Counted from the first letter of the stretch, positions 13,240 to 30,410 are shown. The stretch: DNA of 32,000 nucleotides from Gemmata obscuriglobus (GCF_008065095.1 NZ_CP042911.1:1920001-1952000); one strand, 5' to 3'. Made by a program: numbers and translations. The notes: generated by a model not told the origin, from the letters alone.

Positions 13240-13293
13240 CGGTTCAGGGTTCGCCACCCGTCCGTACTTCACTCAACCGTAACCCGTGAAGAC

Positions 13294-14712: not shown

Positions 14713-14753
14713 GCCGGGGCGGCCGAACCGTCCCGATCCGAGCGAGGGGCAGA

Positions 14754-15182
14754 ATGCGAATCTGGTTGACGATGGCCGCGGTGTGCGCGGCGCTGGCGGC
14801 GGCCGGGTGTGGCTCGAAGCGGCCCGGCGAGGTGCCCGTGTACCCGGTGAAGGGGCGGGTCACCTTCAGGGGCGAGCCGATGCCGCACGCGGTGGTCACC
14901 TTCTACCCGCTCGGGCAGCCGTTCGCGCAGGCGCTCAAGTGCCGCGCGAATGCCGACCCGGACGGGAACTATCGCCTCACCACTTATGAACTGAACGACG
15001 GCGCCCCGGAGGGCGAGTACGGGGTCATCCTGTACGTCCCGCCGGCGCCCCCGGAGCCGCACGCGCTCGAGGTGCCGAACCCGCCCGACCGCTTGAAGGG
15101 CGCGTACCTGGACCCCGCGAAATCGAAGCTGAGGTACACCGTCCGGCCCGAGCCGAACACCATTAACATCGACCTGCCGTAA
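14754..15182 (+). CDS. Small lipoprotein 2, partner of DUF1559-2
   Basis: The ATG at 14754 lies inside track ORF 13923..15182. The sequence is MRIWLTMAAVCAALAAAGC|GS (lipobox), VYPVKGRVTFRGEPMPHAVVTFYP, DGNYRLTTYELNDGAPEGEYGV, PDRLKGAYLDPAKS, PNTINIDLP. Confidence 0.75.
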   Translation: MRIWLTMAAVCAALAAAGCGSKRPGEVPVYPVKGRVTFRGEPMPHAVVTFYPLGQPFAQALKCRANADPDGNYRLTTYELNDGAPEGEYGVILYVPPAPPEPHALEVPNPPDRLKGAYLDPAKSKLRYTVRPEPNTINIDLP

Positions 15183-15189
15183 CGGAGGG

Positions 15190-16110
15190 GTGCGCGTGAA
15201 GCGGTTCACTCGCGGGTTCGCCGCGGTCGACCTGTTGGCGGCCGTCGCGCTGGGGACGGCCGCCGCCGGGCTGTTGCTCCCGGCCGTGCAGAAGGTGCGG
15301 GCGGCCGACGCCCGCGCCCGGTGCGCCGACCACCTGCGCCTGATCGGGAAGGGCGCGGCCGGGTACGCCGCGGCCCACGACGGGAACCTGCCGCGCGACG
15401 GCTCGGCGCCGCGCGGGAGTTGGAACAGCGAGATCCTGGCCCACATCGGCGAGGAGAAGCTGGCGAAGGCGTACGCCCCGGGCCAGGACTGGTTCGCGCC
15501 CGGCCCGGGCGGCAACCGGGACGTGGCCGCGACCCGCGTGCCCGCGTTCCTGTGCCCGGCGGCGCCGCACCCGGACCGCTGGGTGCTCACGCAGGACCCC
15601 GACGACGCCGCGCGGAGCTTCAAGGCCGCCCCGACGGACTACGTCGGCTCCGCGGGCGCGTACTACCAGAACAACGACCCGGGCAACCTGCACCCGGGCG
15701 CGATGCACCACCGCAAGATCACCCGCCGCATCCACGTGTCGGATGTTCAGGACGGCGCCGCCAACACGCTGCTGGTGGTCGAGATGGCGGACAAGCCGAA
15801 CGGGTGGCGCGCCGGGAAACTGGCCGAGGACCGGTCGGGGAAGCCGCAGATGCCGGCGCTCAACGGCCAGTGGGCGGCGCCGAACTGGAACCACCTGCGC
15901 TCGTACACGGCCGACGGCCGGGAGCAGTTCGGCCCGTGCGCGGTGAACTGCGCGAACGGGGCCAGCATCTACGGGTTCCACCCCGGGGGCGCGAACGCCC
16001 TGTTCGTGGGCGGGTCGGTGCGGTTCCTCAAGGCCGGGCTGTCCCAGGAACTGCTGGTCGCGCTCGTGAGCATCGCCGGCGGCGAGGTGCTCGGCCCGAA
16101 CGACTTTTGA
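15190..16110 (+). CDS. DUF1559 protein 3, divergent paralog with degenerate pilin signal and degenerate H-X9-DG motif
   Basis: GTG start at 15190. The N-terminus TRG|[44 protein letters not shown] replaces [16 protein letters not shown] (E5 becomes D, and the Ile/Val helix is replaced by Ala/Gly). The core [12 protein letters not shown] is retained. The C-terminal motif [19 protein letters not shown] has DG changed to GG. Confidence 0.8.
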
Positions 16111-16133
16111 CCCACCACAGGAGATCCGGACTC

Positions 16134-17018
16134 ATGCGCGCTCGCCGTGGCTTCACGCTGATCGAGCTATTGGTGGTGATCGCGATCATTGCGATCCTCA
16201 TCGGCCTGTTGCTGCCCGCCGTGCAGAAGGTGCGCGACGCCGCGGCGCGGATGAGCTGCCAGAACAACCTGAAGCAGATCGGCCTCGCGCTGCACAACTA
16301 CGAGAACGCCAACGGCAAGCTCCCCCCGCGGGCCTTCCCGGGCACCGGGGCCGCGTGGGGCACGCTGATCCTGCCGCACATCGAGCAGGACAACGTGTTC
16401 AAGCTGTACCGCCCGGACCTCGACTGGCGCGACCCGCTCAACCAGGACGCGGTCACCAAGCCGGTCAAGACGTACAAGTGCCCGTCCTCGCCCGAGCGGA
16501 CCGCGAGCGGCACGTTCAACGGCGGGGCGTGGGCGTCGAGCGTCAGCGACTTCGGGGCCAACGGCGGCCTCGACCCGTCCCTCATGACGCTCGGCTGGCT
16601 CCCCGCGACGACCAGCCGCAACGGGGTCTTCATGCAGGGGATCGAGTTGCGGGTCACCGACATCACCGACGGCACCTCGACCACCCTGGCCGTGGTCGAG
16701 ATGGGCGGGCGGCCGAACCGCTGGAACGCCGGCCGGGACACCGGGGCCATCCAGAACGCCGGGGTGAAGGGGCCGTGGGCGCACACCCACAACCACATCG
16801 AGGCCCGCGGGCACTCGGCCGACGGCACCACCAAGCCCGGCGCCTGCACCGTCAACTGCACCAACGCCGACGGCATCTACGGGTTCCACACGAACGGCGC
16901 GAACGTGGCGCTGATGGACGGGTCGGTCCGGTTCGTCACGCCGGCGCTGAACAACTTCGTCCTGTACGCCGTCGCGACCCCGAGCACCGGTGAGGTGGTG
17001 AATGGCTCGGACTTTTAG
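16134..17018 (+). CDS. DUF1559 protein 4 (pilin-like N-terminus, H-X9-DG)
   Basis: The ATG at 16134 lies inside track ORF 15321..17018. The sequence is MRARRG|[52 protein letters not shown], then [13 protein letters not shown], then [19 protein letters not shown]. Confidence 0.9.
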
Positions 17019-17436
17019 CTTGGCCGCCCTGTTCGTCGTGCTGGCCGCCGGCTGTGGACCCCGGGACGGCCGCAAGCCGGTGATCCCTGTTTCGGGACGG
17101 GTGACGTGCAAGGGCGAGCCGATGGCCGGCGCGATGGTCGGGTTCCACCCGCTCGACGACCCGGACCCGCGGGCCGTACGCGCGCAGGCCACCGCCGACA
17201 AGGACGGCCGCTACACGCTGACCACCTACGCCACCGGCGACGGCGCGCCGGCCGGCGCGTACGCGGTCACGGTCTACTGGCCCGGGCCGCGCCCGAAGGG
17301 CCAGGCCTTGGAACCGGGCGAGGACGAAGAGGTCCCGCCGGACCGGCTCAAGCGCGCGTTCGCGGACCCGAGAGCGACCAAGCTGCGCGCCGCCGTGCGC
17401 GCCGAACCGAACACGATCGACTTCCACCTGCCGTGA
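17002..17436 (+). CDS. Small lipoprotein 3, partner of DUF1559-4 (17-nt overlap)
   Basis: The sequence is [18 protein letters not shown]|GP (lipobox), [74 protein letters not shown]. The start overlaps the 3' end of the preceding gene. Confidence 0.75.
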
Positions 17437-17447
17437 GGACCCCGGCC

Positions 17448-18356
17448 GTGCCCCGACGTTCCGCCTTTACCCTGATCGAACTGCTGGTGGTGATCGCGAT
17501 TATTGCGATCCTCATCGGCCTGTTGCTGCCGGCCGTGCAGAAGGTGCGCGAGGCCGCCGCGCGCATGAAGTGCCAGAACAACCTGAAGCAGATCGGGCTG
17601 GCCATGCACAATTACGCGGGCGCGAACAACGGGCTGCCGCCGCGCCGCTCGTACCCGCTGCCGGAGCCGAACGTCGGCTGGCCGGTGCTGATCCTCGATT
17701 ACCTCGAGCAGGGGAACGTGAAGGCCGCGCTGAAAATGGATCAGAGCTATTTCGCCCCCGAGAACAACGAGGCCCTCAAGAAGCCGCTGCCGGTCTACCA
17801 GTGCCCGGCCGCCCCGAGCCCCGAGCGGCTCATCAAAATGAACGCCAACGGCATGTACGGGGCCGTCGGCGACTACTACGCGTGCAACATCGTTCAAGAC
17901 CCCACGTTCGCCATGCCCGGCGCGGCCGGGGGCACCAGCGCCGCACTGATCGACGACATGGCACTGAGTCAAGGAAGTGCGGTGCGTCCGCTCACAAACT
18001 TCCCGGACGGCACCTCAAGCACCCTCGTGCTGCGCGAGGTGGCGGGCCGCCCGGACGGGTACAACGCGACGGGCGCCCGGACGCCCTACGCCGACGGCGT
18101 TTCTTCGATCGGGGCGTGGGCGTCGTACCAGTCGGCGGTGGTCGAGAGCTGGGACGAGTCGGGCACCACCAAGAACGGCACCTGCGTCGTCAATTGCAAC
18201 AACTTTTACGGAACGTACGCGTTCCACCCGGCCGGCGCGAACCATGTGTTCGCCGACGGGTCGGTCCGCACGGTCCGCAAAGGGGTCAACAAGTACCTGT
18301 ATTACGCCCTGGTGACCCGCAACGGCGGTGAGGTGCTGAGCGATGGCGAGTTCTGA
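17448..18356 (+). CDS. DUF1559 protein 5 (pilin-like N-terminus, H-X9-DG)
   Basis: GTG at 17448, in frame within track ORF 17106..18356, whose upstream part is Arg/Gly-rich junk overlapping lipoprotein 3. The sequence is VPRRSA|[52 protein letters not shown], then [13 protein letters not shown], then [19 protein letters not shown]. Confidence 0.85.
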
Positions 18357-18783
18357 CCGCGCGCCGCCCGCGGCGCGGCTGGCAGGGGCGCTGGCCCTGC
18401 TCACCGCGCTCGGCTGCGGCGCGGGCGGCCCTCCGCCGGCCCAGCCGACGCGCGGCGAGGTCCGCCTTCAGGGGAAGCCGGTGGCCGGCGCCTGGGTGGT
18501 GCTCACCGCGACCGAGGGCGATAAGGCGCGCGCCATGAAGCCGTTCGGCCGGACCGGCCCGGACGGCACGTTCCGGCTCCGCACCTACGAGGGCGAGGAC
18601 GGCGCGCCCGCCGGCGAGTACGCGGTCACGATCACCTGGCCCGGCCCGCCGCCGAAGGGCGACCCGGACGCGACCGAAGGGCCGGACCGGCTCAAGGGGC
18701 GGTTCGCGGACCCGGCCAAGGCGCGGTGGAAGGTCCAGATCGCCCCCGGCGACAACACGCTCCCGGCGTTCGTACTCGACTGA
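18343..18783 (+). CDS. Small lipoprotein 4, partner of DUF1559-5 (14-nt overlap)
   Basis: The sequence is ...[13 protein letters not shown]|GA (lipobox), [73 protein letters not shown]. Confidence 0.75.
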
Positions 18784-18809
18784 GTTCCGTTACCCACACA
18801 GGAGCACCG

Positions 18810-20096
18810 GTGCGCACCTTTACGAACCCACTCACCCGCCGCGGACTGTTCCGCTCGGCGGCCGGCGCCGGCCTCGGGGCCGGGTTCACGTCCGGCTGGC
18901 TCCGCGCGCTCGCCGCGGGCGCGCCCAAGAAGCCCGCCAAGTCGGTCATCGTGCTGTGGCTCGACGGCGGGCCGGCGACCATCGACCTGTGGGACCTGAA
19001 GCCGGGCCACGCGAACGGCGGGCCGTTCCGGGCGATCGACACCGCCGCCCCCGGCCTGAAGATCGGCGAGCACCTGCCGAAGCTCGCGAAGCTCGGCAAG
19101 GACCTCGCCGTGGTGCGGTCGATGTCCACCAAGGAGGGCGACCACGGGCGGGCCACCTACCTCCTGCGCACCGGGTACACCCCGCTGGGCGCGATCCAGT
19201 ACCCGGCCGCCGGCGCGGTCATCGCCAAGGAGCTGGGGGCCGAGGCCGGCGACCTGCCGAACTTCGTCAGCGTCGCGCCGGCGCGCAACGCCGCGTCCGG
19301 CGGCGGGTTCCTCGGGCCGCACTTCGACCCGCTCGTGGTCGGCGAGCTGACCGCCCCGCAGGACGGGCTGAAGGTGCCCGACCTGGCCCGCACCGCCGGC
19401 GTCGGCGACGACGCGCAGCGGGCGCGGCTCGAACTGCTCGCCGGCGCCGAGCGGCAGTTCGCCGCCGGCCGCGAGTCGGCGGTCGCGGGCAGCGTCCGGG
19501 CCGCGACCGCCCGCGCGGTGCGGCTCATGAAGCCGGAGGCCGCGGCGGCGTTCGACCTGGAGCAGGAGAAGCCGAAGGCGCGCGACGCCTACGGCCGCGG
19601 GCTGTTCGGTCAGGGGTGCCTGCTGGCCCGCCGGCTGGTGGAGCGGGGCGTGCCGTTCGTGGAGGTGACGCTCGACGGCTGGGACACCCACCAGAACAAC
19701 TTCGACCGCGTGAAGGACCTGTGCGGCGCCCTCGATGCCGGGTTCGCCGCTCTGCTGGCGGATCTGAAGGACCGCGGGATGCTGGACAGCACGCTGGTGG
19801 TGTGCCAGGGGGAGTTCGGCCGCACGCCCAAGATCAACGGCAACACCGGGCGCGACCACTGGCCCGCGTCGTGGGCCGTGGCCCTCGCCGGCGGCGGGCT
19901 GAAAACGGGGCAGGCGGTCGGCAGAACGAGCACGGACGGCGCCGCGGTCGAGGACAAGCCGCGCGGGGTGCCGGACCTGATCGCCACGGTCGCGAAAGCG
20001 GTCGGCATCGACCCGAAGAAGCAGAACATGTCGAACGTGGGCCGGCCCATCCGGGTCGCCGACCCGGACGCCGAGCCCATCAAGGAGCTGCTGTGA
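18810..20096 (+). CDS. DUF1501 protein 1 (alkaline-phosphatase/sulfatase-superfamily fold, Tat signal)
   Basis: GTG at 18810, 5 nt after AGGAG (18800-18804), in frame with track ORF 18726..20096. Twin-arginine signal: LTRRGLFRSAAGAGLGAG. DUF1501 blocks: VIVLWLDGGPATIDLWDLKPGH, VVRSMSTKEGDHGRA, FGQGCLLARRLVERGVPFVEVTLDGWDTHQNNF, LVVCQGEFGRTPKING..GRDHWPASWAVALAGGG. Confidence 0.9.
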   Translation: MRTFTNPLTRRGLFRSAAGAGLGAGFTSGWLRALAAGAPKKPAKSVIVLWLDGGPATIDLWDLKPGHANGGPFRAIDTAAPGLKIGEHLPKLAKLGKDLAVVRSMSTKEGDHGRATYLLRTGYTPLGAIQYPAAGAVIAKELGAEAGDLPNFVSVAPARNAASGGGFLGPHFDPLVVGELTAPQDGLKVPDLARTAGVGDDAQRARLELLAGAERQFAAGRESAVAGSVRAATARAVRLMKPEAAAAFDLEQEKPKARDAYGRGLFGQGCLLARRLVERGVPFVEVTLDGWDTHQNNFDRVKDLCGALDAGFAALLADLKDRGMLDSTLVVCQGEFGRTPKINGNTGRDHWPASWAVALAGGGLKTGQAVGRTSTDGAAVEDKPRGVPDLIATVAKAVGIDPKKQNMSNVGRPIRVADPDAEPIKELL

Positions 20097-21649
20097 ACCG
20101 GGTCATTTTCGTCGCGCTGGTCGGGGCCGCGGTCCTGTGCGCCGCGCCCGCGAGACCGGCGGAACCCGGCCCCAGCCCGCGGGCCGACGCGCTCGAACTG
20201 CTGTTCATCGGGGGCGAGAAGCCCGCGCGGCTGGAGCTGCGCGCCGAGATCGACGGGCGGCCCGTCCCCGCGGTCTGGGATGACACGTTCGCGAAGCTGT
20301 TCGCGTACTTCGACCGCGACGCCGACGGCGCCCTCGACGCCACCGAGGCGGCCCGCCTGCCGTCGGCGTTCGCGCTGCGGCAGGTGCTGTGGGGGCAGTC
20401 CACGCCCTTCACGGGCGCCGCGCCGCCGCTTGCGGACATCGACCTCAACGGGGACGGCAAGGCGAGCCCCGACGAACTCGCCGACTTCTACCGCCGGGCT
20501 GGGCTGGGCGGGGTGCTCGTGGGGGTCGGGAGGGCACCGGCGACCGATGCCTTAACCGATGCGCTGCTGAAGCACCTCGACACCAACAAGGACGGCAAGC
20601 TCACCGAGGCGGAGGTGAAGGCGGCCCCCGACGCGCTGAAGGCGCTCGACGCCAACGACGACGAGCTGATCGGCCCCGGCGAACTGGTCGAGCGCACCGC
20701 CTACCCCGGCGCGCTCGGGGCGATCCTGGTGACGGCCCCGGCGCCGAACGGGGCGCCCGACGCCGTCGCGGACGCGCTCCCGTTCGTGGTGCTGCCGCTG
20801 CGCACCGCGGACCGCGGCTGGGAGGCCGCCGTGGCGGCCCGTCGCGAAAAGGTCGGGCTATCGGCGTTCACGGCCGAGTCGCTACGTGGTCCGCGAAGGC
20901 CGTCACCAGCGGCCGTGTGGAAGGCACGGTTCGGGGAGAAGCTGACCGGCGGCGCGCTGGAGCCGGTCGGCGGAAAGCTCCCCGCGAGCGGCCGGCTCGT
21001 GTACGCCGCCGGCGCGGTGCGGCTCGAACTCCGGTCGGACGAGGGGAAGCTCGCCGAGCCGGTCGCCGCCGCGCGCAAGCGGTACGCCGCCCAGTTCGCC
21101 GAGGCCGACGCCGACGCGAACGCGCGCCTCGACCCGAAGGAGCTCGCGGCCCCGAAGGCCGGGACGCTCAAACAGCTCGCGGCGGCGGCCGACCGGAACG
21201 GCGACGGCGCCTTGAGCGACACGGAGCTGACCGCGTGGCTCGACCTCCAGGACCAGATCGCGAGGGGGCACGTGCTGCTGACGGTGATCGACCACGGCGC
21301 CGGGCTGTTCGAGCTGCTGGACGCGGACCACGACGGGGCGCTGTCGGTGCGCGAGCTGCGCGGCGCGTGGGACCGGCTGACGGCCGCGGGGTGCGTGACC
21401 GACGGCCGTTTCGACCGCGCGAAGCTGCCGCGCCAGTTGCTCGCCGCGATCAGCCGCGGGCACCCGAAGTCGTCCCCGGGCAAGCCGGCCCGGCCCGGCC
21501 CGGCGTGGTTCGTGGCGATGGACCGCAACGGCGACGGGGACGTGTCGCGCCGCGAGTTCACCGGCCCGGCTGCGGTGTTCGACACGCTCGACGCCGACAA
21601 GGACGGCCTCCTCGACGCCCGCGAGGCCGGCGCCGCGGTTAAAAACTGA
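20093..21649 (+). CDS. Secreted multi-EF-hand (8 Ca2+-loop) protein 1, stop/start-coupled to DUF1501-1
   Basis: The GTG at 20093 overlaps the DUF1501 stop (GTGA). The N-terminal part of track ORF 18956..21649 is an out-of-frame shadow of DUF1501. The signal-like N-terminus is VNRVIFVALVGAAVLCAAPARPA. There are eight DxDxDG-type loops: DRDADGALDATE, DLNGDGKASPDE, DTNKDGKLTEAE, DANDDELIGPGE, DRNGDGALSDTE, DADHDGALSVRE, DRNGDGDVSRRE, DADKDGLLDARE. Confidence 0.8.
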   Translation: MNRVIFVALVGAAVLCAAPARPAEPGPSPRADALELLFIGGEKPARLELRAEIDGRPVPAVWDDTFAKLFAYFDRDADGALDATEAARLPSAFALRQVLWGQSTPFTGAAPPLADIDLNGDGKASPDELADFYRRAGLGGVLVGVGRAPATDALTDALLKHLDTNKDGKLTEAEVKAAPDALKALDANDDELIGPGELVERTAYPGALGAILVTAPAPNGAPDAVADALPFVVLPLRTADRGWEAAVAARREKVGLSAFTAESLRGPRRPSPAAVWKARFGEKLTGGALEPVGGKLPASGRLVYAAGAVRLELRSDEGKLAEPVAAARKRYAAQFAEADADANARLDPKELAAPKAGTLKQLAAAADRNGDGALSDTELTAWLDLQDQIARGHVLLTVIDHGAGLFELLDADHDGALSVRELRGAWDRLTAAGCVTDGRFDRAKLPRQLLAAISRGHPKSSPGKPARPGPAWFVAMDRNGDGDVSRREFTGPAAVFDTLDADKDGLLDAREAGAAVKN

Positions 21650-21776
21650 CCGCGCCCGGACAAAGCGTTGTCAGCCCTCGGGTTCGCATCGCTTCCGCGC
21701 CCCCGAAAAGTGATAATGCCGGTGCCCGCCGCCCGCACCCGGCTCGACCTGAATCGCTCGCTCACCGGAGGCCCTG

Positions 21777-23072
21777 ATGTTCTCACTGCGTGTTCGGCCG
21801 TCGCGCCGGGACTGGCTGCGGCTCTCGGCCGCCGGCGCGGTCGGCGTGTCACAGTCCGGGTGGCTCGGCGCGCTGGCCGACGACGCCGCCCGCGCCCCGA
21901 AGAAGCACAAGTCCGTCATCCTCTTGTGGATGAACGGCGGCCCCGCGACCATCGACCTGTGGGACCTGAAGCCGGGCCACGACAACGGCGGCCCGTTCCG
22001 GGAGGCCGCCACCGCCGCACCCGGGCTGAAGATCAGCGAGCACCTGCCGAAACTCGCGAAGCTCGGCAAGGAGCTGGCCGTGGTCCGCTCGATGGCGACC
22101 CGCGAGGGCGACCACCAGCGGGCGCGCGTCGTCGGCCTGACCGGGTACACCCCGCAAGGGGCGATCCAGTTCCCCGCGCTCGGCGCGCTGGTGGCGCACG
22201 AGTTCGACGACCCGAAGGCCGACCTGCCCGGGTTCGTCGCGGTCGGCGGCCGGTCGGACGTCGGCGGCGGGTTCCTCGGGCCGCGGTTCGCGCCGTTCGT
22301 GGTGGGCGGGGAGCGCGAGCGCGGCGGCCCTGCGAACGCCGACCTGCGCGTCGCCGACCTCGACCCACCGGCCGGCCTCGGCACGGAGGCGCAGGTGAAG
22401 CGCCTCGACCTGCTCGCGGGGCTGGAGAAGGACTTCGCGCCCGGGAAGGCGCACCCGGTGGCCGAGACGATGCGCGCCGCGACCGACCGCGCCGTCCGGC
22501 TGATGCGCCCGGAGGCCGCCGCTGCGTTCCGGCTCGAGGACGAGACGCCGCAGGTGCGCGACGCCTACGGCCGCGGCACCTTCGGCCAGGGGTGCCTGCT
22601 CGCCCGCCGGCTGGTGGAACGGGGCGTGCCGTTCGTGGAAGTGACGCTCGACGGCTGGGACACGCACAACAACAACTTCGACCGCGTCAAGGCGCTCTCC
22701 ACCACGCTCGACACCGGGTTCTCCGCTCTGCTGGCGGACCTGAAGGACCGCGGGCTGTTGGACCGCACGCTGGTGGTGTGCCAAGGGGAGTTCGGGCGGA
22801 CGCCGAAGATCAACGGGCAGAGCGGCCGCGACCACTGGCCCGCGTCGTGGGCCGTGGCCCTCGCCGGGGCCGGCGTCAAGGGCGGGCAGGCGGTCGGCAA
22901 GACCAGCAAAGACGGCACGCAGGTGGAGAGCGACCCGACCCGCACCGCGGACCTCGTCGCCACCGTGATGAAGGCCGCCGGGCTGGATCCGATGAAGCAG
23001 AACATGTCGAACGTGAGCCGGCCCATCCGGCTGGCCGACCCGAGCGGCAAACCGATCAAGGAGCTGCTGTGA
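21777..23072 (+). CDS. DUF1501 protein 2 (Tat signal), paralog of 18810..20096
   Basis: ATG at 21777, 5 nt after GGAGG. Tat motif: PSRRDWLRLSAAGAVGV. It is collinear with paralog 1 and shares long identical runs: GGPATIDLWDLKPGH, HLPKLAKLGK, FGQGCLLARRLVERGVPFVEVTLDGWDTH, LVVCQGEFGRTPKING, GRDHWPASWAVALAG. Confidence 0.9.
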   Translation: MFSLRVRPSRRDWLRLSAAGAVGVSQSGWLGALADDAARAPKKHKSVILLWMNGGPATIDLWDLKPGHDNGGPFREAATAAPGLKISEHLPKLAKLGKELAVVRSMATREGDHQRARVVGLTGYTPQGAIQFPALGALVAHEFDDPKADLPGFVAVGGRSDVGGGFLGPRFAPFVVGGERERGGPANADLRVADLDPPAGLGTEAQVKRLDLLAGLEKDFAPGKAHPVAETMRAATDRAVRLMRPEAAAAFRLEDETPQVRDAYGRGTFGQGCLLARRLVERGVPFVEVTLDGWDTHNNNFDRVKALSTTLDTGFSALLADLKDRGLLDRTLVVCQGEFGRTPKINGQSGRDHWPASWAVALAGAGVKGGQAVGKTSKDGTQVESDPTRTADLVATVMKAAGLDPMKQNMSNVSRPIRLADPSGKPIKELL

Positions 23073-24556
23073 CCCGTTTCACGTTCGGCGCGCTGGTTCT
23101 GGGGCTGGCGGCCGTCGGTCTGTGCCCGGCGGCCGACCCGGGCGCGGCCAAGCCGGCCGGGGTGCCGGTCGGGTTCGCGCTGCTCGACGGCGACGCGCTC
23201 CGGCGCATCGAGGTGCGGGCCGAAGTCGACGGCGTCCCGGTTTCCGCGATCTGGGACGAGACGTTCGCGAAGCTGTTCGCGTACTTCGACCGCAACGCCG
23301 ACGGCGCTCTGGACGCGAAGGAGGTGACGCTGCTGCCCCCGGCGCGGGCGCTGCGCCAGTCGCTGGGGAGCGGGTTCACGCCGCCGACCGGGCCGGTCCT
23401 GACGCTCGCGGACCTGGACCGCAACGGTGACATCAAGGTGAGCCTCGACGAGTTGGTGGCCTACTACCGCGCGAACGGGCTGGGCAACATTCAGGTCGGC
23501 GCCGGCACGCTGCCCGCGAGCGCCGACCTGACCGCGGCGCTGGTCAAGCACCTGGACACGAATTCTGACGGCAAAGTGAGCGAAGCGGAGTGGCGGGCGG
23601 CGGCCGACGTGCTGAAGGCGCTCGACAAGAACGACGACGAGCTGATCGGCGCCGGCGAACTGGTGCCGAAGGCCGTGTACCCCGGCGCCGCGGGCGCGCT
23701 GCTCCTGTCCCCACCGGGCACGGACACAACCGGGCAACCCGCGGCGGTCGCGGCTCTGCCGCTGGTGCTGCTCCCGGCCGACCCGAAGGACGCGAACTGG
23801 GCCGCCGAGGTCGCCCGCCGCGACCCGCGGCACAAGGTGACCGACGCGGCGGCGTGGCGCCAGAAGGCGGCCGACGTTACGTGGGCGGTGAATCTGTCCG
23901 ACAAAGGTGGTGCGTCGGACCGGCTCGCGTTCGCCGGGACCGCGGTTCGTGTGGACGGCTGGGCCGCTCCGGGGAAGGCGGGCGAAGCCGCCGCGACCGC
24001 GCGCAAACAGTTCGTCGCGCAACTGGACGCGCCCGAACCGGCCGACGCACCCAAGGGGCGCCGGCCGGCCGGCGGGCTGGGGTGGCTGACACCGATCGCC
24101 GACCGCGACGGCGACGGCACCCTGGACCGCAAGGAACTCGACGGGTGGCTCGACCTGCAAGCCCAGATCATGCGGGGGCAGGTCTTCCTCACGGTCCTCG
24201 ACGGCGCCGGGTTGTTCGAGCTGCTGGACGCGAACCACGACGGGGCGCTGTCGGTGCGGGAGCTGCGCGGCGCGTGGGACCGGCTGAAGGCCGCGGGGTG
24301 CGTCGCCGACGGCGCGGTCGCCCCGGCGAAGGTGCCGCGCGGGGTTCTGTGTGCGGCGAGCCTGGGTTACCCGCGGACGCTGGCGGCGAGCACCCGCGGC
24401 GGCCCGGCGTGGTTCGTGGCGATGGACCGCAACGGCGACGGGGACGTGTCGCGCCGCGAGTTCACCGGCCCGGCCGCGGTGTTCGACACGCTCGACCTTG
24501 ATAAGGACGGGCTGCTCAGTGCCGAAGAGGCCGGGAAGGCGAACCCGAAGAAGTGA
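23069..24556 (+). CDS. Secreted multi-EF-hand (8 Ca2+-loop) protein 2, stop/start-coupled to DUF1501-2
   Basis: The GTG at 23069 overlaps the DUF1501-2 stop (GTGA). The N-terminus is VTRFTFGALVLGLAAVGLCPAADP. The loops are DRNADGALDAKE, DRNGDIKVSLDE, DTNSDGKVSEAE, DKNDDELIGAGE, DRDGDGTLDRKE, DANHDGALSVRE, DRNGDGDVSRRE, DLDKDGLLSAEE. It is collinear with 20093..21649. Confidence 0.8.
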   Translation: MTRFTFGALVLGLAAVGLCPAADPGAAKPAGVPVGFALLDGDALRRIEVRAEVDGVPVSAIWDETFAKLFAYFDRNADGALDAKEVTLLPPARALRQSLGSGFTPPTGPVLTLADLDRNGDIKVSLDELVAYYRANGLGNIQVGAGTLPASADLTAALVKHLDTNSDGKVSEAEWRAAADVLKALDKNDDELIGAGELVPKAVYPGAAGALLLSPPGTDTTGQPAAVAALPLVLLPADPKDANWAAEVARRDPRHKVTDAAAWRQKAADVTWAVNLSDKGGASDRLAFAGTAVRVDGWAAPGKAGEAAATARKQFVAQLDAPEPADAPKGRRPAGGLGWLTPIADRDGDGTLDRKELDGWLDLQAQIMRGQVFLTVLDGAGLFELLDANHDGALSVRELRGAWDRLKAAGCVADGAVAPAKVPRGVLCAASLGYPRTLAASTRGGPAWFVAMDRNGDGDVSRREFTGPAAVFDTLDLDKDGLLSAEEAGKANPKK

Positions 24557-24596
24557 TGACCGATCCGATTGAACCGAACGAGCCGCAGATGAGTCA

Positions 24597-24641
24597 AGCT
24601 GAAGTTCCGGCCCCGCCTGTTTGGGGGCGGGAGCTTCAGCT
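24597..24641 (+). terminator. Candidate stem-loop at the end of the 14-gene array
   Basis: AGCTGAAG (24597-24604) pairs with CTTCAGCT (24634-24641). The inner pair is CCCGCC (24612-24617) with GGCGGG (24626-24631). The left arm has a bulge, and there is no U-tract, so this is weak. Confidence 0.3.
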
Positions 24642-24749
24642 CTTCCCGACTTGGAAAGTGGAACAATTGGACTTGATACCCGATCCCGTCCGGGACGTGT
24701 CGTTCCCGGATTCCGTGTAATTCGCGCCCCATCGTCATAAAATGCCGGT

Positions 24750-25391
24750 ATGTGGCCCAACCGCGAAGAAACCGACCGCCTGCTCGACGAGGCCCGCGCC
24801 GGCGCGCCGGGCGCGGTCGACAAGCTCCTCGGCGAGTTCCGCGACCCGCTGCGCCAGGTCGTCGGCCTGCGGCTCGACCCCGCCGTCGCGCGCCGCGTGG
24901 ACGCCTCCGACATCGTTCAGGACGTGCTGATCGAGGCCAACCAGCGGCTCACCGAGTACCTGAAGAAGCCCGACATGCCGTTCCACCTGTGGCTGCGGCA
25001 CCTCGCGCAGGACCGCATCATCGACACGCACCGCCGGCACCGGCTGGCGCAGCGCCGCAGCGTGGACCGCGAGCAGCCGATCGCCCGCCCGGCGTGGAAC
25101 GACGAGTCGAGCGTCTCCCTCGTCGCGCAACTGATCGACACCGAGCGCACCCCCACGTCCGAAGCGATCCGGCTGGAGCTCCAGCGCCGGCTCGCGACCG
25201 CGATCGACAAGCTCTCCGAGGACGACCGCGAGATCGTGCTCATGCGGCACCACGAGGCGCTGTCGAACCAGGAGGTGGCGCACGCGCTGCAGTTGACCGA
25301 GGCCGCGGCGTCGATGCGGTACTTGCGGGCGCTGCGGCGGTTGCGCACGGTGCTCGTGCCGGACGGACAGGAGCGGCCCGATGACGTCTGA
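24750..25391 (+). CDS. ECF-type sigma-70 family RNA polymerase sigma factor (planctomycete subgroup)
   Basis: The N-terminal extension is ETDRLLDEARAGAPGAVDKLLGEFRDPLRQVVGLRLDPAVARRVDASDIVQDVLIEA. Region 2 reads FHLWLRHLAQDRIIDTHRRH. Region 4 HTH reads LSEDDREIVLMRHHEALSNQEVAHALQLTEAAASMRYLRALRRLR. The layout matches the planctomycete ECF group that is typically linked to Ser/Thr kinases (from memory of TIGR02984 and the ECF-STK literature). Confidence 0.9.
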   Translation: MWPNREETDRLLDEARAGAPGAVDKLLGEFRDPLRQVVGLRLDPAVARRVDASDIVQDVLIEANQRLTEYLKKPDMPFHLWLRHLAQDRIIDTHRRHRLAQRRSVDREQPIARPAWNDESSVSLVAQLIDTERTPTSEAIRLELQRRLATAIDKLSEDDREIVLMRHHEALSNQEVAHALQLTEAAASMRYLRALRRLRTVLVPDGQERPDDV

Positions 25392-25941
25392 TGCCGGCGC
25401 CGCCGGGCGCGCGTACCCGTACTGGTCGGGCTGGCACATGGTCGGCTGCTCGGTGCTGTTCTTCGGGCTCTTCGGCACGTTCGCGGTGTCGCTGTTCCCG
25501 GCCGGGTACGGCCGCGTCCGCACCGGCGACCTGCCGACCGGCGTCGCGATGATGGTGTTCGGCGTGTTCGGCGCGCCCACGCTCGGGATGGCGTTCTGGT
25601 CGCTGGTCACGGGCGTGCGCAACGCGTTCCGCCCGCCGCTGCTGCGGCTCACCGCCGCCGCACTGGTGCTCCCGGTCGAAGCGCGCGGCGAGCCACCGCG
25701 GGGCGAACACGGCGAGCTGCTGTCGCACGAGCCCCCTCAGCCCGAAGCGGTGCCGCTGAACGCGATCCGGACGGTCGCGACGAACGGGGGCGGGCACAAG
25801 CGGGCGCTGGAGGTGGTTCACGACCTCAGCGCCCAGCCGCTCCGCATCGAGGCGCACATGATGCGCCCGGCCGACTTTGACGATCTTGAGGCCCGGTTGA
25901 GGAACGCCGTGCCGGCCGCGTTCGCGACCGCCGTGATGTGA
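25381..25941 (+). CDS. Two-TM membrane protein of unknown function, overlapping the sigma gene by 11 nt
   Basis: ATG at 25381. The hydrophobic segments are MVGCSVLFFGLFGTFAVSLFPAG and GVAMMVFGVFGAPTLGMAFWSLV, followed by a ~100-aa soluble tail. There is no zf-HC2 (HxxxCxxC) anti-sigma motif. GC3 is coding-like. Confidence 0.6.
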   Translation: MTSDAGAAGRAYPYWSGWHMVGCSVLFFGLFGTFAVSLFPAGYGRVRTGDLPTGVAMMVFGVFGAPTLGMAFWSLVTGVRNAFRPPLLRLTAAALVLPVEARGEPPRGEHGELLSHEPPQPEAVPLNAIRTVATNGGGHKRALEVVHDLSAQPLRIEAHMMRPADFDDLEARLRNAVPAAFATAVM

Positions 25942-25954
25942 GCCGAGGGTTCCG

Positions 25955-26413
25955 ATGCCGCCCTTCGACCTCGACACCGCCGCACGGTTCGGCACAGGCC
26001 CCGCCCGCCTGGTGTCGCTCGCCTTGATGATGACGACCCGCGACGGGGCCGATCGGCTCACGTTCGATCCCTCGCGCCGGTCCGGGGCCGGGAGCAGCAC
26101 CGTCGAGTGCCGCATCGGGGGCGACTGGTATAGCCTGGTACCGCCGCCCGATACGGTCCTGCCAAAGTTGACGCGCCTGCTGCGCGAGCTGGCCGGCGGA
26201 CCGGACGGCCGGTTCACCGCGCGTCTCGGCGGGCACGAGTTCGCCGTCCGCGTAGAGATCGTGCCGGTGCCACACCCGCCGTCGTCCGTCCTGGAGTGCT
26301 CGACTCTGGAACTCCCGGTTCTGCCGGAGCTGTCCGGGCGGGCAAATGAACTGCTCGACTCGCACTTTGATGAAAACGGCTCTGTGTATTTTGACGATTC
26401 CGAATTCGCCTGA
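25955..26413 (+). CDS. Standalone GspE/PilB N2-like domain protein A (no ATPase core)
   Basis: 152 aa. ARLVSLALMMTTRDGADRLTFDP...VECRIGGDWYSLVPPPDTVLPKLTRLLRELAG...GRFTARLGGHEFAVRVEIVP parallels the secretion-ATPase N2 segment (L.N.IL..A...GASDIHIEP....R.RIDG.L.....P......I..RIK.LA....QDGRI....G...D.RVS..P). There is no Walker A motif. The call comes from by-eye alignment. Confidence 0.5.
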   Translation: MPPFDLDTAARFGTGPARLVSLALMMTTRDGADRLTFDPSRRSGAGSSTVECRIGGDWYSLVPPPDTVLPKLTRLLRELAGGPDGRFTARLGGHEFAVRVEIVPVPHPPSSVLECSTLELPVLPELSGRANELLDSHFDENGSVYFDDSEFA

Positions 26414-26431
26414 CTGCCTCGTGAGGTTCCC

Positions 26432-26908
26432 GTGCTGGCTTATGAATCCGTCGATCAGCTTCTCGGCGAATCGGACGTTAAGCGCTTCCTGCACGTCGTG
26501 ATCTTGAACGCGATCCGCGACAAGGCGACGCAGCTCGAAGTGCGGTTCGGCGAAGAGGGCGGGCTGCTGTACTACCGCGTGGACGGCCGCGACTGGGAGC
26601 TGTCGGCGCCGCCGGACGAGGTGTACCCGCTGATCAAAGAGGCGGTGCGCGAGGCGTCCGTGCTGGTGTCGCCCGAGCGCCCGGAGCTGACGGTCATCGC
26701 GGGCATCCCGGGGGCGCGGTACGAACCGCTCGAAGCCGGGTGGCTCACGTACCAGATCGGCGGCCGGTGGATCGACCTCGCGGTGCGCATCGACCCCCGG
26801 GAGCCCTACGGCTTCATCCGGTTCGACATCGACGACGCGACCGAGTTCGCGGACGACGCGGCCGAGGCGCTCGCGGACTACGCGGCCCGCCTCGGGGAAG
26901 ACGAGTAA
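26432..26908 (+). CDS. Standalone GspE/PilB N2-like domain protein B (no ATPase core)
   Basis: GTG start, 158 aa. VKRFLHVVILNAIRDKATQLEVRFGEEGGLLYYRVDGRDWELSAPPDEVYPLIKEAVREASVL....GWLTYQIGGRWIDLAVRIDPREPYGFIRFDI aligns by eye with EpsE/PilB (IIKLINAMLGEAIKEGASDIHIE...IRFRVDGVLREVLAP...LVSRVKVMAKL...DGRISLRIGGRAVDVRVSTMPS.HGERVVMRL). It ends in an acidic tail, and no P-loop follows. Confidence 0.6.
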   Translation: MLAYESVDQLLGESDVKRFLHVVILNAIRDKATQLEVRFGEEGGLLYYRVDGRDWELSAPPDEVYPLIKEAVREASVLVSPERPELTVIAGIPGARYEPLEAGWLTYQIGGRWIDLAVRIDPREPYGFIRFDIDDATEFADDAAEALADYAARLGEDE

Positions 26909-26920
26909 AGGCAGAAGGCG

Positions 26921-27133
26921 TTTTTTACCGCAGAGGGCACGAGAGGGCGCAGAGAGAAACAAGAGTGAGGAAGGCTCAGCTCTCTTGTCTTTCTCTCTGC
27001 GCCCTCTGCGGTGAGCACTCTTTAGACTTTTTTTACCGCAGAGGGCACGAGAGGGCGCAGAGAGAAAGACAAGCGAGGGGCACCTCAACTCTCTGTTCGT
27101 TCTCTCTGCGCCCTCTCGTGCCCTCTGCGGTGA
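26921..27133. repeat. Two tandem copies of a long palindromic (REP-like) element
   Basis: A 39-nt direct repeat TTTTTTACCGCAGAGGGCACGAGAGGGCGCAGAGAGAAA occurs at 26921-26959 and 27029-27067. Each copy pairs with a downstream ...TTCTCTCTGCGCCCTC(TCGTGCCCTC)TGCGGTGA arm. The copy-1 right arm lacks the 10-nt TCGTGCCCTC segment. It fills the gap between the N2-like gene and the kinase gene. Confidence 0.7.
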
Positions 27134-27152
27134 ACCCTTTTTATTTTGAGCC

Positions 27153-28874
27153 ATGGCGCACGACCACGACGAGCAGTTGGCGTTGCTCATCGACCGGCTC
27201 GCGTTCGAGCAGCGGGCCGGGCGCCCCGCGGACGTGGACTCCGCGGCCCGCGAGCACCCCGAACTGGCGGCCGAGTTGCGCGAGCTGTGGGCGGTGGCCC
27301 AGTTCGCGCACCTGGCCCGCCCGGCCGAGCCGGCCCCGCACGCGGTCACCCTGTCCTACCCGGACGCGCCGACGCCCACGGACCGGGCCGAGCACGGGTC
27401 CGCGGCGCTGCCCCGCGACTTCGGCGACTTCGAGCTGCTCGAAGAGGTGGGGCGCGGGGGCATGGGGGTCGTGTACCGCGCCCGGCAGAAGAGCCTCAAC
27501 CGCGTCGTCGCGCTCAAGCTGGTCCGCGAAGCGCACCTCGCGACCGACGCCGACCGCGCGCGATTCCGCACCGAGGCCGAGTCCGCGGCGCGGCTCAAGC
27601 ACCCCAACATCGTAACCGTGTACGACGTGGGCACGGCCGGCGGGCAGGCGTACCTGTGCATGGAGTTCGTCGACGGGCCGACGCTCGCGGAGAAGGTCCG
27701 CACCGGCGGCCCGCTCCCGCCCCGCGCGGCCGCCGCGCTGGTCGCCGTGATCGCCCGGGCGGTCGAGCACGCGCACGCCGCGGGCATCCTGCACCGGGAC
27801 CTGAAGCCGAGCAACATCCTGCTCGGGGGCGCGGAACGGAAAGCCGACCCGCTGCCGCTTTCGGGTTCCGATTCCGCGCTCCGCGCCACGGCCTCGGCGC
27901 TCCAGCCGAAGGTGTCCGATTTCGGCCTCGCGAAGCAGATCGACCGATCGGAGGGCATCACCAAAACCGGCCTCGTGGTCGGGACGCCGAGCTACATGGC
28001 GCCCGAACAGGCCGCGCGGCGCAAGGACCTCACACCGACCGCCGACGTGTACGCGCTCGGCGCCATCCTGTACGAACTGCTCACCGGGCGCCCGCCGTTC
28101 CAGGCCGCCCACCCCGTCGACACCCTGCTCCTCGTCATGGAGCAAGAGCCGGTGCCGCCGCGGCACCTCAACGCGACCGTCGACCGCGAGCTGGAACTCA
28201 TCTGCCTGAAGTGCCTCCAGAAGCCCGCCGAGATGCGGTACCCGTCGGCCGCCGCCCTGGCGACGGACCTCGAAGCCTACGCGGCCGGGCAGCCGGTCGC
28301 GGCGGCGCCCAGCGGGCTGCGGTTCTTCATGGCGCGGCTGTTCCGCGAGACGCACCACGCCGACGTGCTCGAGAACTGGGGCAAGCTGTGGATCTTCCAC
28401 AGCGTCATGATCTTCCTGCTGTGCCTGCTCACACAGGTGCTGGCCTGGGAAGGCTACAAGGACCACGTGTGGTACATGGGGTTCTGGTCGGTCGGGCTGG
28501 TCACCTGGGGCACGATCTTGTGGCAGTTGCGCAAGGCCGCCGGGCCGGTGCTGTTCGTGGAGCGGCAGATCGCGCACGCGTGGGCGGCCGGCGTGTGCGC
28601 CAGCATCGCGATGTTCTGGATCGAGTGGCTGGCGCAGCTCCCGGCGCTGACGCTGTCGCCGGCGGTCGCGGTCGCGGCCGGGATGGTGATGATGTTCAAG
28701 GCCGGCATCCTGTCGGGGCGGTTCTACGGCTGGGCCGCGCTGAACTTCGGCGCCTCGGTCGTGATGCCACTGGTTCCGCAGGTGAGCATTCTGCTGTTCG
28801 GGGCGGTGTCGGCGCTGTCGTTCTTTGTCCCGGGGCTGAAGTACTATCGCCAGAGGAAGGCGCGGATCGCGTAG
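27153..28874 (+). CDS. Ser/Thr protein kinase with N-terminal helical extension and C-terminal polytopic membrane domain
   Basis: Hanks motifs: GRGGMGVVYRA, VALKLV, HRDLKPSNILL, DFGLAK, SYMAPEQ. The N-terminal ~95 aa read EQLALLIDRLAFEQRAGRPADVD...HPELAAELRELWAV. The C-terminus has about six hydrophobic helices (LWIFHSVMIFLLCLLTQVLAW ... ILLFGAVSALSFFVPGL). Confidence 0.9.
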   Translation: MAHDHDEQLALLIDRLAFEQRAGRPADVDSAAREHPELAAELRELWAVAQFAHLARPAEPAPHAVTLSYPDAPTPTDRAEHGSAALPRDFGDFELLEEVGRGGMGVVYRARQKSLNRVVALKLVREAHLATDADRARFRTEAESAARLKHPNIVTVYDVGTAGGQAYLCMEFVDGPTLAEKVRTGGPLPPRAAAALVAVIARAVEHAHAAGILHRDLKPSNILLGGAERKADPLPLSGSDSALRATASALQPKVSDFGLAKQIDRSEGITKTGLVVGTPSYMAPEQAARRKDLTPTADVYALGAILYELLTGRPPFQAAHPVDTLLLVMEQEPVPPRHLNATVDRELELICLKCLQKPAEMRYPSAAALATDLEAYAAGQPVAAAPSGLRFFMARLFRETHHADVLENWGKLWIFHSVMIFLLCLLTQVLAWEGYKDHVWYMGFWSVGLVTWGTILWQLRKAAGPVLFVERQIAHAWAAGVCASIAMFWIEWLAQLPALTLSPAVAVAAGMVMMFKAGILSGRFYGWAALNFGASVVMPLVPQVSILLFGAVSALSFFVPGLKYYRQRKARIA

Positions 28875-28936: not shown

Positions 28937-29004
28937 TTGTGGCACAGACATTCCTGTCTGTGCGGTAATTTTGAGGAACACAGACAGGAATGTCTGTGCC
29001 ACAA
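28937..29004. repeat. Perfect 26-bp-stem hairpin with self-palindromic arms (REP-like; possible terminator of the kinase gene)
   Basis: TTGTGGCACAGACATTCCTGTCTGTG (28937-28962) is the exact reverse complement of CACAGACAGGAATGTCTGTGCCACAA (28979-29004), with a 16-nt loop. Each arm also contains CACAGACA-N4-TGTCTGTG. Confidence 0.7.
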
Positions 29005-29039
29005 GAAACAGACTACGGCCGGAAGGCCAAGAGCTTGCT

Positions 29040-29948
29040 ATGAGTCGCAGGACGCGCCGTGTGTTGTGGGTGGTCGCCGCGCTCGGTTCGCTGCCGCTGC
29101 TGGTGGTCGGGCTGTTCGCGCTAAACGGTCTCGCCCTCGCCGGCCGGCAGGCGCCGCGGATGCAGCACCTCGCGGACGTGCCCGTAGCCGCGTCGCGGTC
29201 CCCGGCGGGGGAGGCCACGTTCGTCAGTTACAACATCGCGAAGGGGTTCGCCCACAGGGGCGGGCTGAAGTTCGAGTCGCGCGAGTTCGTGCTGGCGAAG
29301 CTCCGGCGCATGGCCGAAGTCATCCGGGCCGAGCAACCCGACGCGGTGTTCCTCTCGGAAGCCCTCACCGAGCTGGCGCCCTGTAACGTCGATCAGGTCG
29401 AGTACCTCGCGCGTGAGTGCGGGCTGCCGCACGTCGCGGCCGGCGAGAACTACAACGTCGGCCTCCCGTTCGCGCGCGTGGCCGGCGGCAACGCGATCCT
29501 GTCGCGCACGCCGCTCACGCCGGTCGCGAACATCGACCTGGCGGGCCGGAAACCGTTCTGGGTGACGGGGAACAACCGGCGGGCGCTGTTCGTGTCGGCC
29601 GAGTTCGGCGGGCGACCGGTGCTGATGGCCGCCCTGCACAACGACTCGTTCGACATGCGGAACAACCTGACGCAGGCGCAGCAACTTTTGGACTTCGTGG
29701 GCGACCGGCCCGCGATTCTGGCGGGCGATTTCAACAACCGGCCCGAGAACGCGTCGATCAAGCTGATCCGCGACACCGGCAAGTTCTGCGGCGCGTTCGA
29801 CGGCCCGCCGACGTTCTTCGAGGGCACGCGCGCCGAGCGCCTCGACTACATCTTCGCCCCGGCCGGGTGGGAGTTGCTCGAATCGCGTGTGGTCGCCGAC
29901 GACACGTCGGACCACCGCCCGCTCGTGTGCCGGTTCAAGGTGAAATGA
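29040..29948 (+). CDS. Endonuclease/exonuclease/phosphatase (EEP) family protein with N-terminal membrane anchor or signal
   Basis: I prefer the ATG at 29040 (MSRRTRRVLWVVAALGSLPLLVVGLFAL) over the track start 28971, which lies inside the hairpin. EEP hallmarks: FVSYNI, PDAVFLSEA, GNAILSR, ILAGDFN, RLDYIF, and a C-terminal SDHRPLVCRF. Confidence 0.85.
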   Translation: MSRRTRRVLWVVAALGSLPLLVVGLFALNGLALAGRQAPRMQHLADVPVAASRSPAGEATFVSYNIAKGFAHRGGLKFESREFVLAKLRRMAEVIRAEQPDAVFLSEALTELAPCNVDQVEYLARECGLPHVAAGENYNVGLPFARVAGGNAILSRTPLTPVANIDLAGRKPFWVTGNNRRALFVSAEFGGRPVLMAALHNDSFDMRNNLTQAQQLLDFVGDRPAILAGDFNNRPENASIKLIRDTGKFCGAFDGPPTFFEGTRAERLDYIFAPAGWELLESRVVADDTSDHRPLVCRFKVK

Positions 29949-30067: not shown

Positions 30068-30304
30068 TCATGCGCGGTCGCGCAAGGCGGTGTGCCCGGC
30101 GTGCTTCGCGCAGTTCGCACAACAGTAGATGACGCCGCCCTGTTCGACGCCGTGTCCCACGACCCGGCACCCGCAGTGCGAGCACTCGGGCGCCAGGGCG
30201 TGAATCGCGCACTCGAACGAGTCGAACGTGTGCTCGCTGCCGTCGGTTTCCGTCACGGTGAACGCCTTATCGTACTCGTTGCCACACACTTCGCACTTCT
30301 TCAT
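30068..30304 (-). CDS. Small Cys/His-rich (three CxxC) putative metal-binding protein
   Basis: I prefer the ATG at 30304 (MKKCEVCGNEYDKAF...), which has GAGGGG 5 nt upstream, over the track start at 30322. It is 78 aa with 9 Cys and 6 His (counted). CxxC occurs at residues 4-7, 41-44 and 62-65. FDSFECAIHALAP and CCANCA are typical of a conserved small bacterial family whose name I cannot recall. Confidence 0.7.
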   Translation of the reverse strand: MKKCEVCGNEYDKAFTVTETDGSEHTFDSFECAIHALAPECSHCGCRVVGHGVEQGGVIYCCANCAKHAGHTALRDRA

Positions 30305-30410
30305 TGGTGCCCCTCGGTTCATGTCCGCTCATGCGGTGATGGTGTTCCCCTCCGCGCCGCAGGTAGTGCAAATAGCACGCCCATCTGATCGTGACGCACC
30401 TATGCCGGGG

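Follow-up and report, generated by a model that had tools for sequence, protein, structure and literature searches.

The 32,000-nt stretch of Gemmata obscuriglobus DNA analysed here (GCF_008065095.1 NZ_CP042911.1:1920001-1952000; "the window") carries a run of five genes that begins with an extracytoplasmic function (ECF) sigma factor and ends with a polytopic Hanks-type Ser/Thr kinase (STK), with a two-transmembrane protein (TM2) and two small proteins (smA and smB) between them. A first-pass annotation of the sequence alone had proposed all five as a sigma-control module. By comparing related loci, we have narrowed the five candidates to a three-gene core, sigma-smB-kinase, whose middle member is a conserved, structurally defined and uncharacterised partner. 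We suggest, tentatively, that the core forms an ECF module under kinase control, with a new partner resembling the N2 domain of secretion ATPases; this is the best overall explanation of the data, and we stop just short of calling it probable. The linkage of sigma and kinase is of a kind already known; what seems new is the N2-like partner, the leaderless promoter of the sigma gene and the accessory TM2 and N2-like inserts. Kinase-linked ECF sigmas are abundant in the Planctomycetes and, to our knowledge, none has been dissected there, and the only mechanism we know of for such sigmas, that of the ECF43 group, has two components. If smB binds the sigma or the kinase, it would be a new fold among sigma regulators and a new use of a secretion-motor domain.

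The evidence for the core comes from 45 Gemmataceae loci (Gemmata, Frigoriglobus, Urbifossiella and Fimbriiglobus), collected in a one-genome-per-species scan with the smB alignment and compared with the window proteins by tblastn; a kinase was scored if it lay within 1.5 kb downstream of smB. In 36 of the 42 loci that are informative, smB is preceded by an orthologous sigma gene in the same orientation, and in 27 of 41 an orthologous kinase gene lies downstream. Thirty-eight loci are informative on both sides: 24 have sigma-smB-kinase, nine have sigma-smB, five have smB alone, and smB-kinase lacking the sigma does not occur. smB is therefore linked to the sigma more tightly than the kinase is and, since 24 of the 38 loci hold the complete triad and TM2 and smA are limited to certain lineages, the conserved core is sigma-smB-kinase. 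The gap between sigma and smB is 12-118 nt where TM2 is absent, the smB and kinase genes overlap or lie 0-40 nt apart in about ten loci, and independent gene calls in Gemmata sp. SH-PL17 give the order sigma, TM2, smB, kinase and an endonuclease/exonuclease/phosphatase-family (EEP) gene. Judged by sequence, the neighbours are true orthologues and the adjacency of sigma and kinase is conserved across Gemmataceae genera, which bears out the linkage drawn in the first-pass annotation.

The AlphaFold2 (AF2) model of smB, built from a 75-sequence alignment, has a predicted local distance difference test score (pLDDT) of 90.5 and a predicted template modelling score (pTM) of 0.85. When it was compared with the PDB by Foldseek, the top 24 matches were all N2-plus-ATPase constructs of PilB, GspE/EpsE, PilF or BfpD (best E = 2.7e-6; TMq, the score relative to the query, 0.48-0.58), and the aligned length of about 120-137 columns corresponds to one N2 domain. 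Identity to the best-matching PDB ATPases is 16-19% (BfpD: 10%), and a search of PDB sequences with the smB profile gave no significant match, the N2 kinship being revealed only by the structure search. The sole Pfam/NCBIfam match among the three small proteins is a weak one of smB to positions 172-230 of the PilB model; by reading of the sequence, LNAIRDKATQLEV and YYRVDG of smB correspond to the ASDIHIEP and RxRIDG region of N2. In its model smB thus shares its fold with the N2 domain of GspE/EpsE, PilB, PilF, BfpD and PilT but, unlike those ATPases, it has no N1 domain and none of the RecA-like ATPase domain with its Walker A and B motifs, and it has a longer conserved loop (residues 80-100). 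Its conservation and the low confidence of its model are what one expects of a binding loop. Other conserved residues of smB are R29/D30, Y47-R49 and D54-E56. The 158-residue protein stops after an acidic C-terminal helix.

smA and smB had been described as two N2-only secretion-ATPase fragments. The N2 assignment holds for smB in its predicted structure and for smA through remote homology; the word fragment does not hold. Neither protein (158 and 152 residues) has a T2SSE match in Pfam, and both open reading frames (ORFs) end at stop codons conserved in homologues. Of smB, 262 homologues were found, the 120 listed being 65-99% identical, and the mean column identity is 64-74%. Among 1.84 billion representative proteins the smB profile matched 45 clusters at E <= 1e-3, nearly all of 110-200 residues, and no full-length ATPase at that threshold. 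smB therefore belongs to an intact, small, old, stand-alone and strongly conserved family of about 158 residues and is no gene fragment. No informative gene fusion of smB was found: an apparent fusion to a permease in locus L039 is an out-of-frame ORF artefact, and two longer smB-containing proteins, P0335 and P0321, look like chimeric or frameshifted predictions. Two metagenome scans gave no confirmed locus for the distant N2-like proteins.

The sigma matches Sigma70_r2, Sigma70_r4_2 and Sigma70_ECF above the Pfam cutoffs and scores 84 bits against TIGR02937 (cutoff 42.9) and 234.7 bits against TIGR02984, the planctomycete subfamily model (cutoff 183.75). With sigma2 and sigma4 as its only domains, it is an ECF (group 4) sigma-70 factor, as first annotated. 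Its orthologues in the 36 loci are 74-98% identical to the window protein, and a homologue search yielded only close orthologues (83-96% identity). The sigma2.2 motif reads D51-A-S53-D54-I-V-Q-D; the stretch that holds it, RRVDASDIVQD, does not vary among 35 sequences. In an alignment with CnrH and AlgU, S53 falls on the third DxxD position, which is Asp in CnrH and Gln in AlgU. The linker between sigma2 and sigma4 holds a conserved Ser/Thr cluster (S120, S121, S123, T134 and S137), and we regard these residues together with S53 as candidate phosphorylation sites.

A TAnAAT-type hexamer precedes the sigma ATG by 6 nt (32 loci) or 7 nt (three loci) in all 35 orthologous loci with enough upstream sequence; the background frequency of TAnnnT is 0.4% per position. 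This spacing would put the start of transcription on the ATG itself, so that the sigma transcript appears to be leaderless and made from a housekeeping-type -10 box. ECF sigma genes are commonly autoregulated, and a leaderless housekeeping-type promoter is unusual for one. The arrangement points to a promoter that is neither ECF-type nor autoregulated, which argues for constitutive synthesis of the sigma and for post-translational control. The 74-98% conservation of the sigma across genera, taken together with this promoter, suggests that it controls a core process of the Gemmataceae.

The kinase matches Pkinase (PF00069) over residues 93-368 with E = 5e-51, and the motifs that define a Hanks-type Ser/Thr kinase (Gly-rich loop, VAxK, HRDxKxxN, DFG and APE) are all present and conserved, as GRGGMG, VALK, HRDLKPSN, DFG and APE. 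The catalytic domain is preceded by a conserved N-terminal extension of about 90 residues, contains an insert of about 35 residues and is followed by a juxtamembrane motif and a C-terminal polytopic membrane domain. In the latter, a conserved hydrophobic region has at least four, probably six, transmembrane (TM) segments, and the earlier description of a polytopic kinase is thereby confirmed. In an alignment of 25 sequences (the window protein and 24 orthologues), column conservation is 0.88-0.90 for the kinase lobes, 0.83 for the TM region, 0.65 for the N-terminal extension and 0.49 for the insert. The orthologues are 60-98% identical, TM domain included. The kinase orthologue in Gemmata sp. 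SH-PL17 (L046 6660-8389) is annotated as two genes that overlap, one for a 341-residue kinase domain and one for a 246-residue membrane domain. Either a frameshift or the annotation has split it, or its catalytic and sensor parts are truly separate.

No Pfam or NCBIfam anti-sigma domain was found in any of the five proteins (TM2, smA and smB were searched to E <= 1), in agreement with the first-pass annotation. Nor do the predicted structures resemble class I or II anti-sigmas (zf-HC2, RskA and others that contain an anti-sigma domain, ASD): smB is modelled as an alpha/beta N2 fold and TM2 as PH-like, and neither model has a helical ASD. STAS, HATPase_c and PhyR-like receiver/sigma-mimic domains, the signs of partner switching, are likewise missing from the five proteins and their immediate neighbours.

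The closest parallels in the literature are kinase-linked. Sigmas of the ECF43 group are activated by direct phosphorylation, as described for EcfP/PknT of Vibrio parahaemolyticus and EcfK/PknS of Xanthomonas citri; EcfP is phosphorylated at position three of a sigma2.2 motif that carries no charge, and EcfK at the same position and at sites in the linker (PMC8999054, PMC13147305). Groups ECF59-62 and ECF217 are predicted to work like ECF43 and usually have no anti-sigma (PMC8999054, PMC13147305, PMC7826278), as is typical of STK-linked ECF groups (PMC7826278). The statement of the first-pass annotation that the mechanism of such linkage is unresolved therefore needs qualification: direct phosphorylation of the sigma has been shown for ECF43 (PMC8999054, PMC13147305), and for the planctomycetal groups it is predicted only.

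Like the two ECF43 pairs, the window has an ECF sigma co-encoded with a membrane Hanks kinase (as do 27 of 41 informative loci) and no recognisable anti-sigma. Further shared features are a Ser/Thr at the third DxxD position and Ser/Thr-rich linker candidates that parallel the linker phosphosites of EcfK (PMC8999054, PMC13147305), as well as a conserved N-terminal extension of the kinase, which is described for PknS (PMC13147305). There are also differences. The sigma2.2 motif of this sigma, DASD, retains its two acidic residues, in contrast to the uncharged QTTA consensus of ECF43 (PMC13147305), so the loss of acidic residues that marks ECF43 is not seen; and the membrane part of the kinase is a polytopic C-terminal domain, whereas PknS is presented as a receptor with a transmembrane segment and an extracellular sensor (PMC13147305). 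An N2-like protein stands between sigma and kinase here, and the available parts of the ECF43 reports mention none (PMC8999054, PMC13147305). The planctomycetal STK-linked groups (ECF59-ECF62 and ECF217, formerly ECFSTK1-4) are likewise planctomycete, have a kinase neighbour and have no classical anti-sigma; in the excerpts available, the kinase is the only partner named and an N2-like protein goes unmentioned (PMC7826278, PMC8999054). Our literature search found no mention of a conserved stand-alone N2-like partner, a leaderless sigma promoter or TM2 and N2-like inserts.

We therefore picture the core (the ECF sigma, the cytoplasmic stand-alone N2-like smB and the polytopic membrane Hanks kinase) as a putative conserved signalling operon of the Gemmataceae. 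The sigma would be made constitutively from a leaderless mRNA and controlled post-translationally. The kinase would use its conserved multi-TM domain to sense a cue from the membrane or envelope and, on the analogy of EcfP/PknT and EcfK/PknS, would turn the sigma on by phosphorylation. smB, which occupies the usual position of an anti-sigma, could be a third component that binds the sigma or serves the kinase as an adaptor, either holding or presenting the sigma, or acting as a second substrate of the kinase. We assign smB a role within the module because of its position, its linkage to the sigma (tighter than that of the kinase), its strong conservation and the repeated recruitment of N2-like domains at this place; on sequence grounds it looks like a real candidate intermediary. 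TM2 and smA would be lineage-specific additions that tune the core, and the palindromic repeats before the kinase gene a recent insertion that probably attenuates read-through into it. A bolder form of the proposal is that stand-alone N2 domains, exapted from secretion-ATPase motors, form an unrecognised class of sigma regulators, with smB of the Gemmataceae binding the exceptionally conserved sigma as an anti-sigma, chaperone or phospho-adaptor under a polytopic Hanks kinase. We regard this as rather doubtful; if it were true, the system would be a three-component phospho-switch distinct from both classical anti-sigmas and direct activation of the ECF43 type.

Several observations weigh against a kinase-controlled module. 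The sigma keeps both D51 and D54, so the logic of EcfP, intrinsically inactive until phosphorylated, is not directly transferable, and the invariance of S53 is uninformative because the residue sits inside an 11-residue invariant block. Typical anti-sigmas are far less conserved than smB, and we know of no precedent for the N2 fold as a sigma binder or regulator. Between smB and the kinase gene, the window has two strong hairpins with T-runs, which may uncouple the transcription of the two genes. Within the 1.5 kb scored, 14 of 41 loci have no kinase downstream of smB, unrelated housekeeping genes following instead, so that adjacency of the kinase is dispensable, and five to six loci have smB without the sigma. 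A divergent gene for a haloacid dehalogenase (HAD)-family hydrolase is also syntenic, lying just upstream of the sigma in 18 loci (for example, L007 5995-6702); it is absent from that position in the window and in the closest strain, Gemmata algarum JC673. All the loci come from one family, and synteny of this kind could partly reflect vertical inheritance. From the single family, the HAD gene, the hairpins and the loci with no adjacent kinase it might be argued that there is no functional module beyond sigma and smB, or none at all, the gene order being inherited and the kinase an unrelated neighbour, the more so as Gemmataceae encode roughly 100-140 kinases (PMC11032199), which raises the chance of adjacency. 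We think this unlikely. Genera in which smB is only 53-54% identical still keep the same orthologous kinase, its unusual TM domain included, directly downstream in the same orientation, with the start and stop codons of smB and kinase overlapping or within 40 nt of one another in the ten or so loci noted above; the flanking genes on both sides otherwise vary; and linkage to an STK is recognised as characteristic of several planctomycetal ECF groups (PMC7826278).

Two further explanations keep the operon and change the part played by its products. In PilB/GspE-type ATPases, N2 packs against the neighbouring catalytic domain. smB and smA could then be outputs of the operon, free N2 domains that dock on the motor ATPase domain of a PilB/GspE-type enzyme and modulate either secretion or the assembly of pili, perhaps as decoys that upset the packing of the hexamer, while sigma and kinase merely control their expression. 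It fits with this that the only structural relatives of smB are the N2 domains of PilB, GspE, PilF, BfpD and PilT, that pilin-like (DUF1559) genes are numerous in planctomycetes and form an array in the window, and that a distant family member, P0356, pairs a GspE N1-like region (by sequence reading) with an N2-like domain and has no ATPase. We nevertheless consider it improbable, given that no secretion ATPase or pilus-machinery gene is conserved beside the module, that JC673 has no pilin-like array at this locus and that the divergence of smB from the ATPases is ancient, as judged from the 16-19% identity and the failure to reach any full-length ATPase at E <= 1e-3. Moreover, the gene right after an ECF sigma gene is usually that of its regulator (PMC7826278). 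As a second alternative, TM2, which has the +1 position in the window, could be the real, non-classical membrane anti-sigma, with smB in a sigma-independent housekeeping role and the kinase acting on other targets. TM2 is predicted to be membrane-anchored, its gene overlaps the sigma gene by 11 nt, it evolves fast (35-91% identity), as sensors and anti-sigmas do, and it is duplicated in tandem in three loci. Yet TM2 is absent from 19 of the 36 sigma-linked loci, where smB comes directly after the nearly identical sigma (74-89% identity with the window protein); TM2 also lacks any anti-sigma domain signature, and its match to the PH-like fold is weak. It is smB that nearly always accompanies this sigma in the Gemmataceae, and we give a TM2 anti-sigma little chance.

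The suggestion that all three small proteins are intermediaries thus survives for smB, which is conserved and a candidate, and lapses for the other two, TM2 being present in 17 of the 36 sigma-linked loci (in none, one or two copies, with two in three loci) and smA, among the loci compared, only in the window and in JC673 (L001). TM2 has no Pfam or NCBIfam match. Its AF2 model (pLDDT 86) has helices at residues 18-47 and 51-83, followed by a beta-rich domain for which all Foldseek matches are weak (E >= 0.016) and mostly to domains of the PH/PTB superfold. The model suggests a two-helix membrane hairpin with a PH/PTB-like soluble domain, a clade-specific accessory: of the 74 clusters of TM2 homologues, those with a source name are from Gemmata or Frigoriglobus. 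Membrane-anchored bPH proteins of the YdbS/YdbT type resemble the TM2 model in having two N-terminal TM helices and a small PH-superfold domain; unlike them, TM2 has no Pfam bPH match at E <= 1 and its structural matches are weak. We know of no link of bPH proteins to sigma control. A relationship between TM2 and smB was considered and rejected (hhalign probability 0.7% for TM2 against the smB profile).

smA matches smB in BLASTP with E = 9e-6 and the smB family in hhalign with a probability of 90% (E = 1.4e-6 over 112 columns). It is, on this remote homology to smB alone, presumably a divergent stand-alone N2-like paralogue. Its C-terminal phi-x-F-D-D tail (hydrophobic-acidic) is common to distant family members and is missing from smB. 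An analogue occurs at the position of smA in L021 (6960-7970) and L024 (about 7000-7980), where the gene between TM2 and smB encodes a P0340-like protein of about 338 residues; its two N2-like domains, in tandem, and smB make a row of three such domains. Neither locus has an adjacent kinase. Extra N2-like domains thus seem to have been recruited between sigma and smB in two separate lineages, which counts for a role in the module.

The spacer between smB and the kinase is filled by two tandem copies of a palindromic element of about 108 nt (arm: ...CTCTGCGCCCTCTCGTGCCCTCTGCGGTGAA), each forming a long hairpin flanked by T-runs. A T-run comes after either hairpin in the window; the fold of the spacer has a z-score of -14.9, and the repeat core appeared in 0 of 100 shuffles. 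The element is also present in JC673 (L001 8490-8716), and two Fimbriiglobus loci, L040 (585-752) and L041 (7808-7839), have related arms in the interval from sigma to smB; it is therefore probably a dispersed element of the Gemmataceae, like repetitive extragenic palindromes or miniature inverted-repeat transposable elements (REP/MITE). Rfam gave no known RNA family in the window, spacer included, and a scan for consensus promoters and terminators gave nothing useful in the spacer, where the hairpins exceed its stem and loop limits. The first-pass annotation had noted the repeat-filled spacer. We do not regard it as a trait of the module: the element is absent from the smB-kinase junction of most relatives, many of which have the two genes 0-40 nt apart or overlapping, and in the Gemmata/Frigoriglobus clade the junction holds GC-rich palindromes. 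By comparison of these loci, the repeats are a lineage-specific insertion, whose hairpins may attenuate or terminate transcription before the kinase gene.

The coordinates of the genes and of the elements described above are collected in Table 1. The strand, the overlap of 11 nt, the gaps of 13 and 18 nt and the spacer of 244 nt agree with the first-pass annotation. GC content at third codon positions (GC3) is 0.82-0.95 in all five ORFs, the coding pattern of this genome, and the GC pattern by codon position favours these ORFs over shadow ORFs on the opposite strand. The window is high-GC planctomycete DNA (64-75% GC in 1-kb windows).

Table 1. Coordinates of the five genes, the putative promoter element and the repeats, counted from the first nucleotide of the window.
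Feature	Position	Strand	Remarks
-10-like hexamer TAAAAT	24738-24743	+	6 nt before sigma ATG
ECF sigma	24750-25391	+	213 aa, ORF
TM2 (two-TM protein)	25381-25941	+	186 aa; overlaps sigma gene by 11 nt
smA (first small protein)	25955-26413	+	152 aa; gap to TM2 13 nt
smB (second small protein)	26432-26908	+	158 aa; gap to smA 18 nt
Palindromic REP/MITE-like element, two tandem copies	26916-27024, 27024-27143		about 108 nt, long hairpin each
Hanks-type Ser/Thr kinase	27153-28874	+	573 aa; 244-nt spacer after smB

The region is 95-96% identical in DNA sequence to contig 88 of Gemmata algarum JC673 (L001). The homology begins at window position 24693, 57 nt 5' of the sigma ATG. A 14.4-kb block immediately before this point (10261-24692), which comprises DUF1549/1553, four DUF1559 pilin-like genes, two DUF1501 genes and an EF-hand protein, is missing from the corresponding JC673 locus. 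There the neighbour of the module is the gene found at 6936-10175 in the window, in inverted orientation; from the sequences, a recent indel and an inversion separate these two strains. The first-pass annotation had stressed that the module directly follows the pilin-like array. This adjacency is incidental, because the array is absent from the JC673 locus, and a link between array and module is rejected by comparison with both JC673 and SH-PL17.

The other genes of the window include, besides those of the 14.4-kb block, a formaldehyde-activating enzyme (Fae) gene and a DUF1464 gene, at 3231-3731 and 5608-6630, which fit the tetrahydromethanopterin (H4MPT)-linked one-carbon (C1) gene set of planctomycetes. 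The gene at 6936-10175 (minus strand) encodes a second ECF sigma, of 1079 residues in total, fused to a C-terminal extension of about 880 residues with HEAT repeats (ECF-HEAT). Sequence matching it lies just upstream of the module in JC673 (L001 3232-5457), and a 682-residue relative lies just upstream of the module in SH-PL17 (L046 1973-4021). A Cys-rich 84-residue ORF with repeated CxxC-like motifs (30068-30322, minus strand) has no Pfam match and is possibly a metal-binding protein. Directly 3' of the kinase, at 28971-29948, is a gene for a membrane-anchored EEP-family protein; an EEP-family gene recurs 3' of the kinase in L001, L004, L011, L018, L019 and L046 and may be a further, loosely linked member of the module or a target gene.

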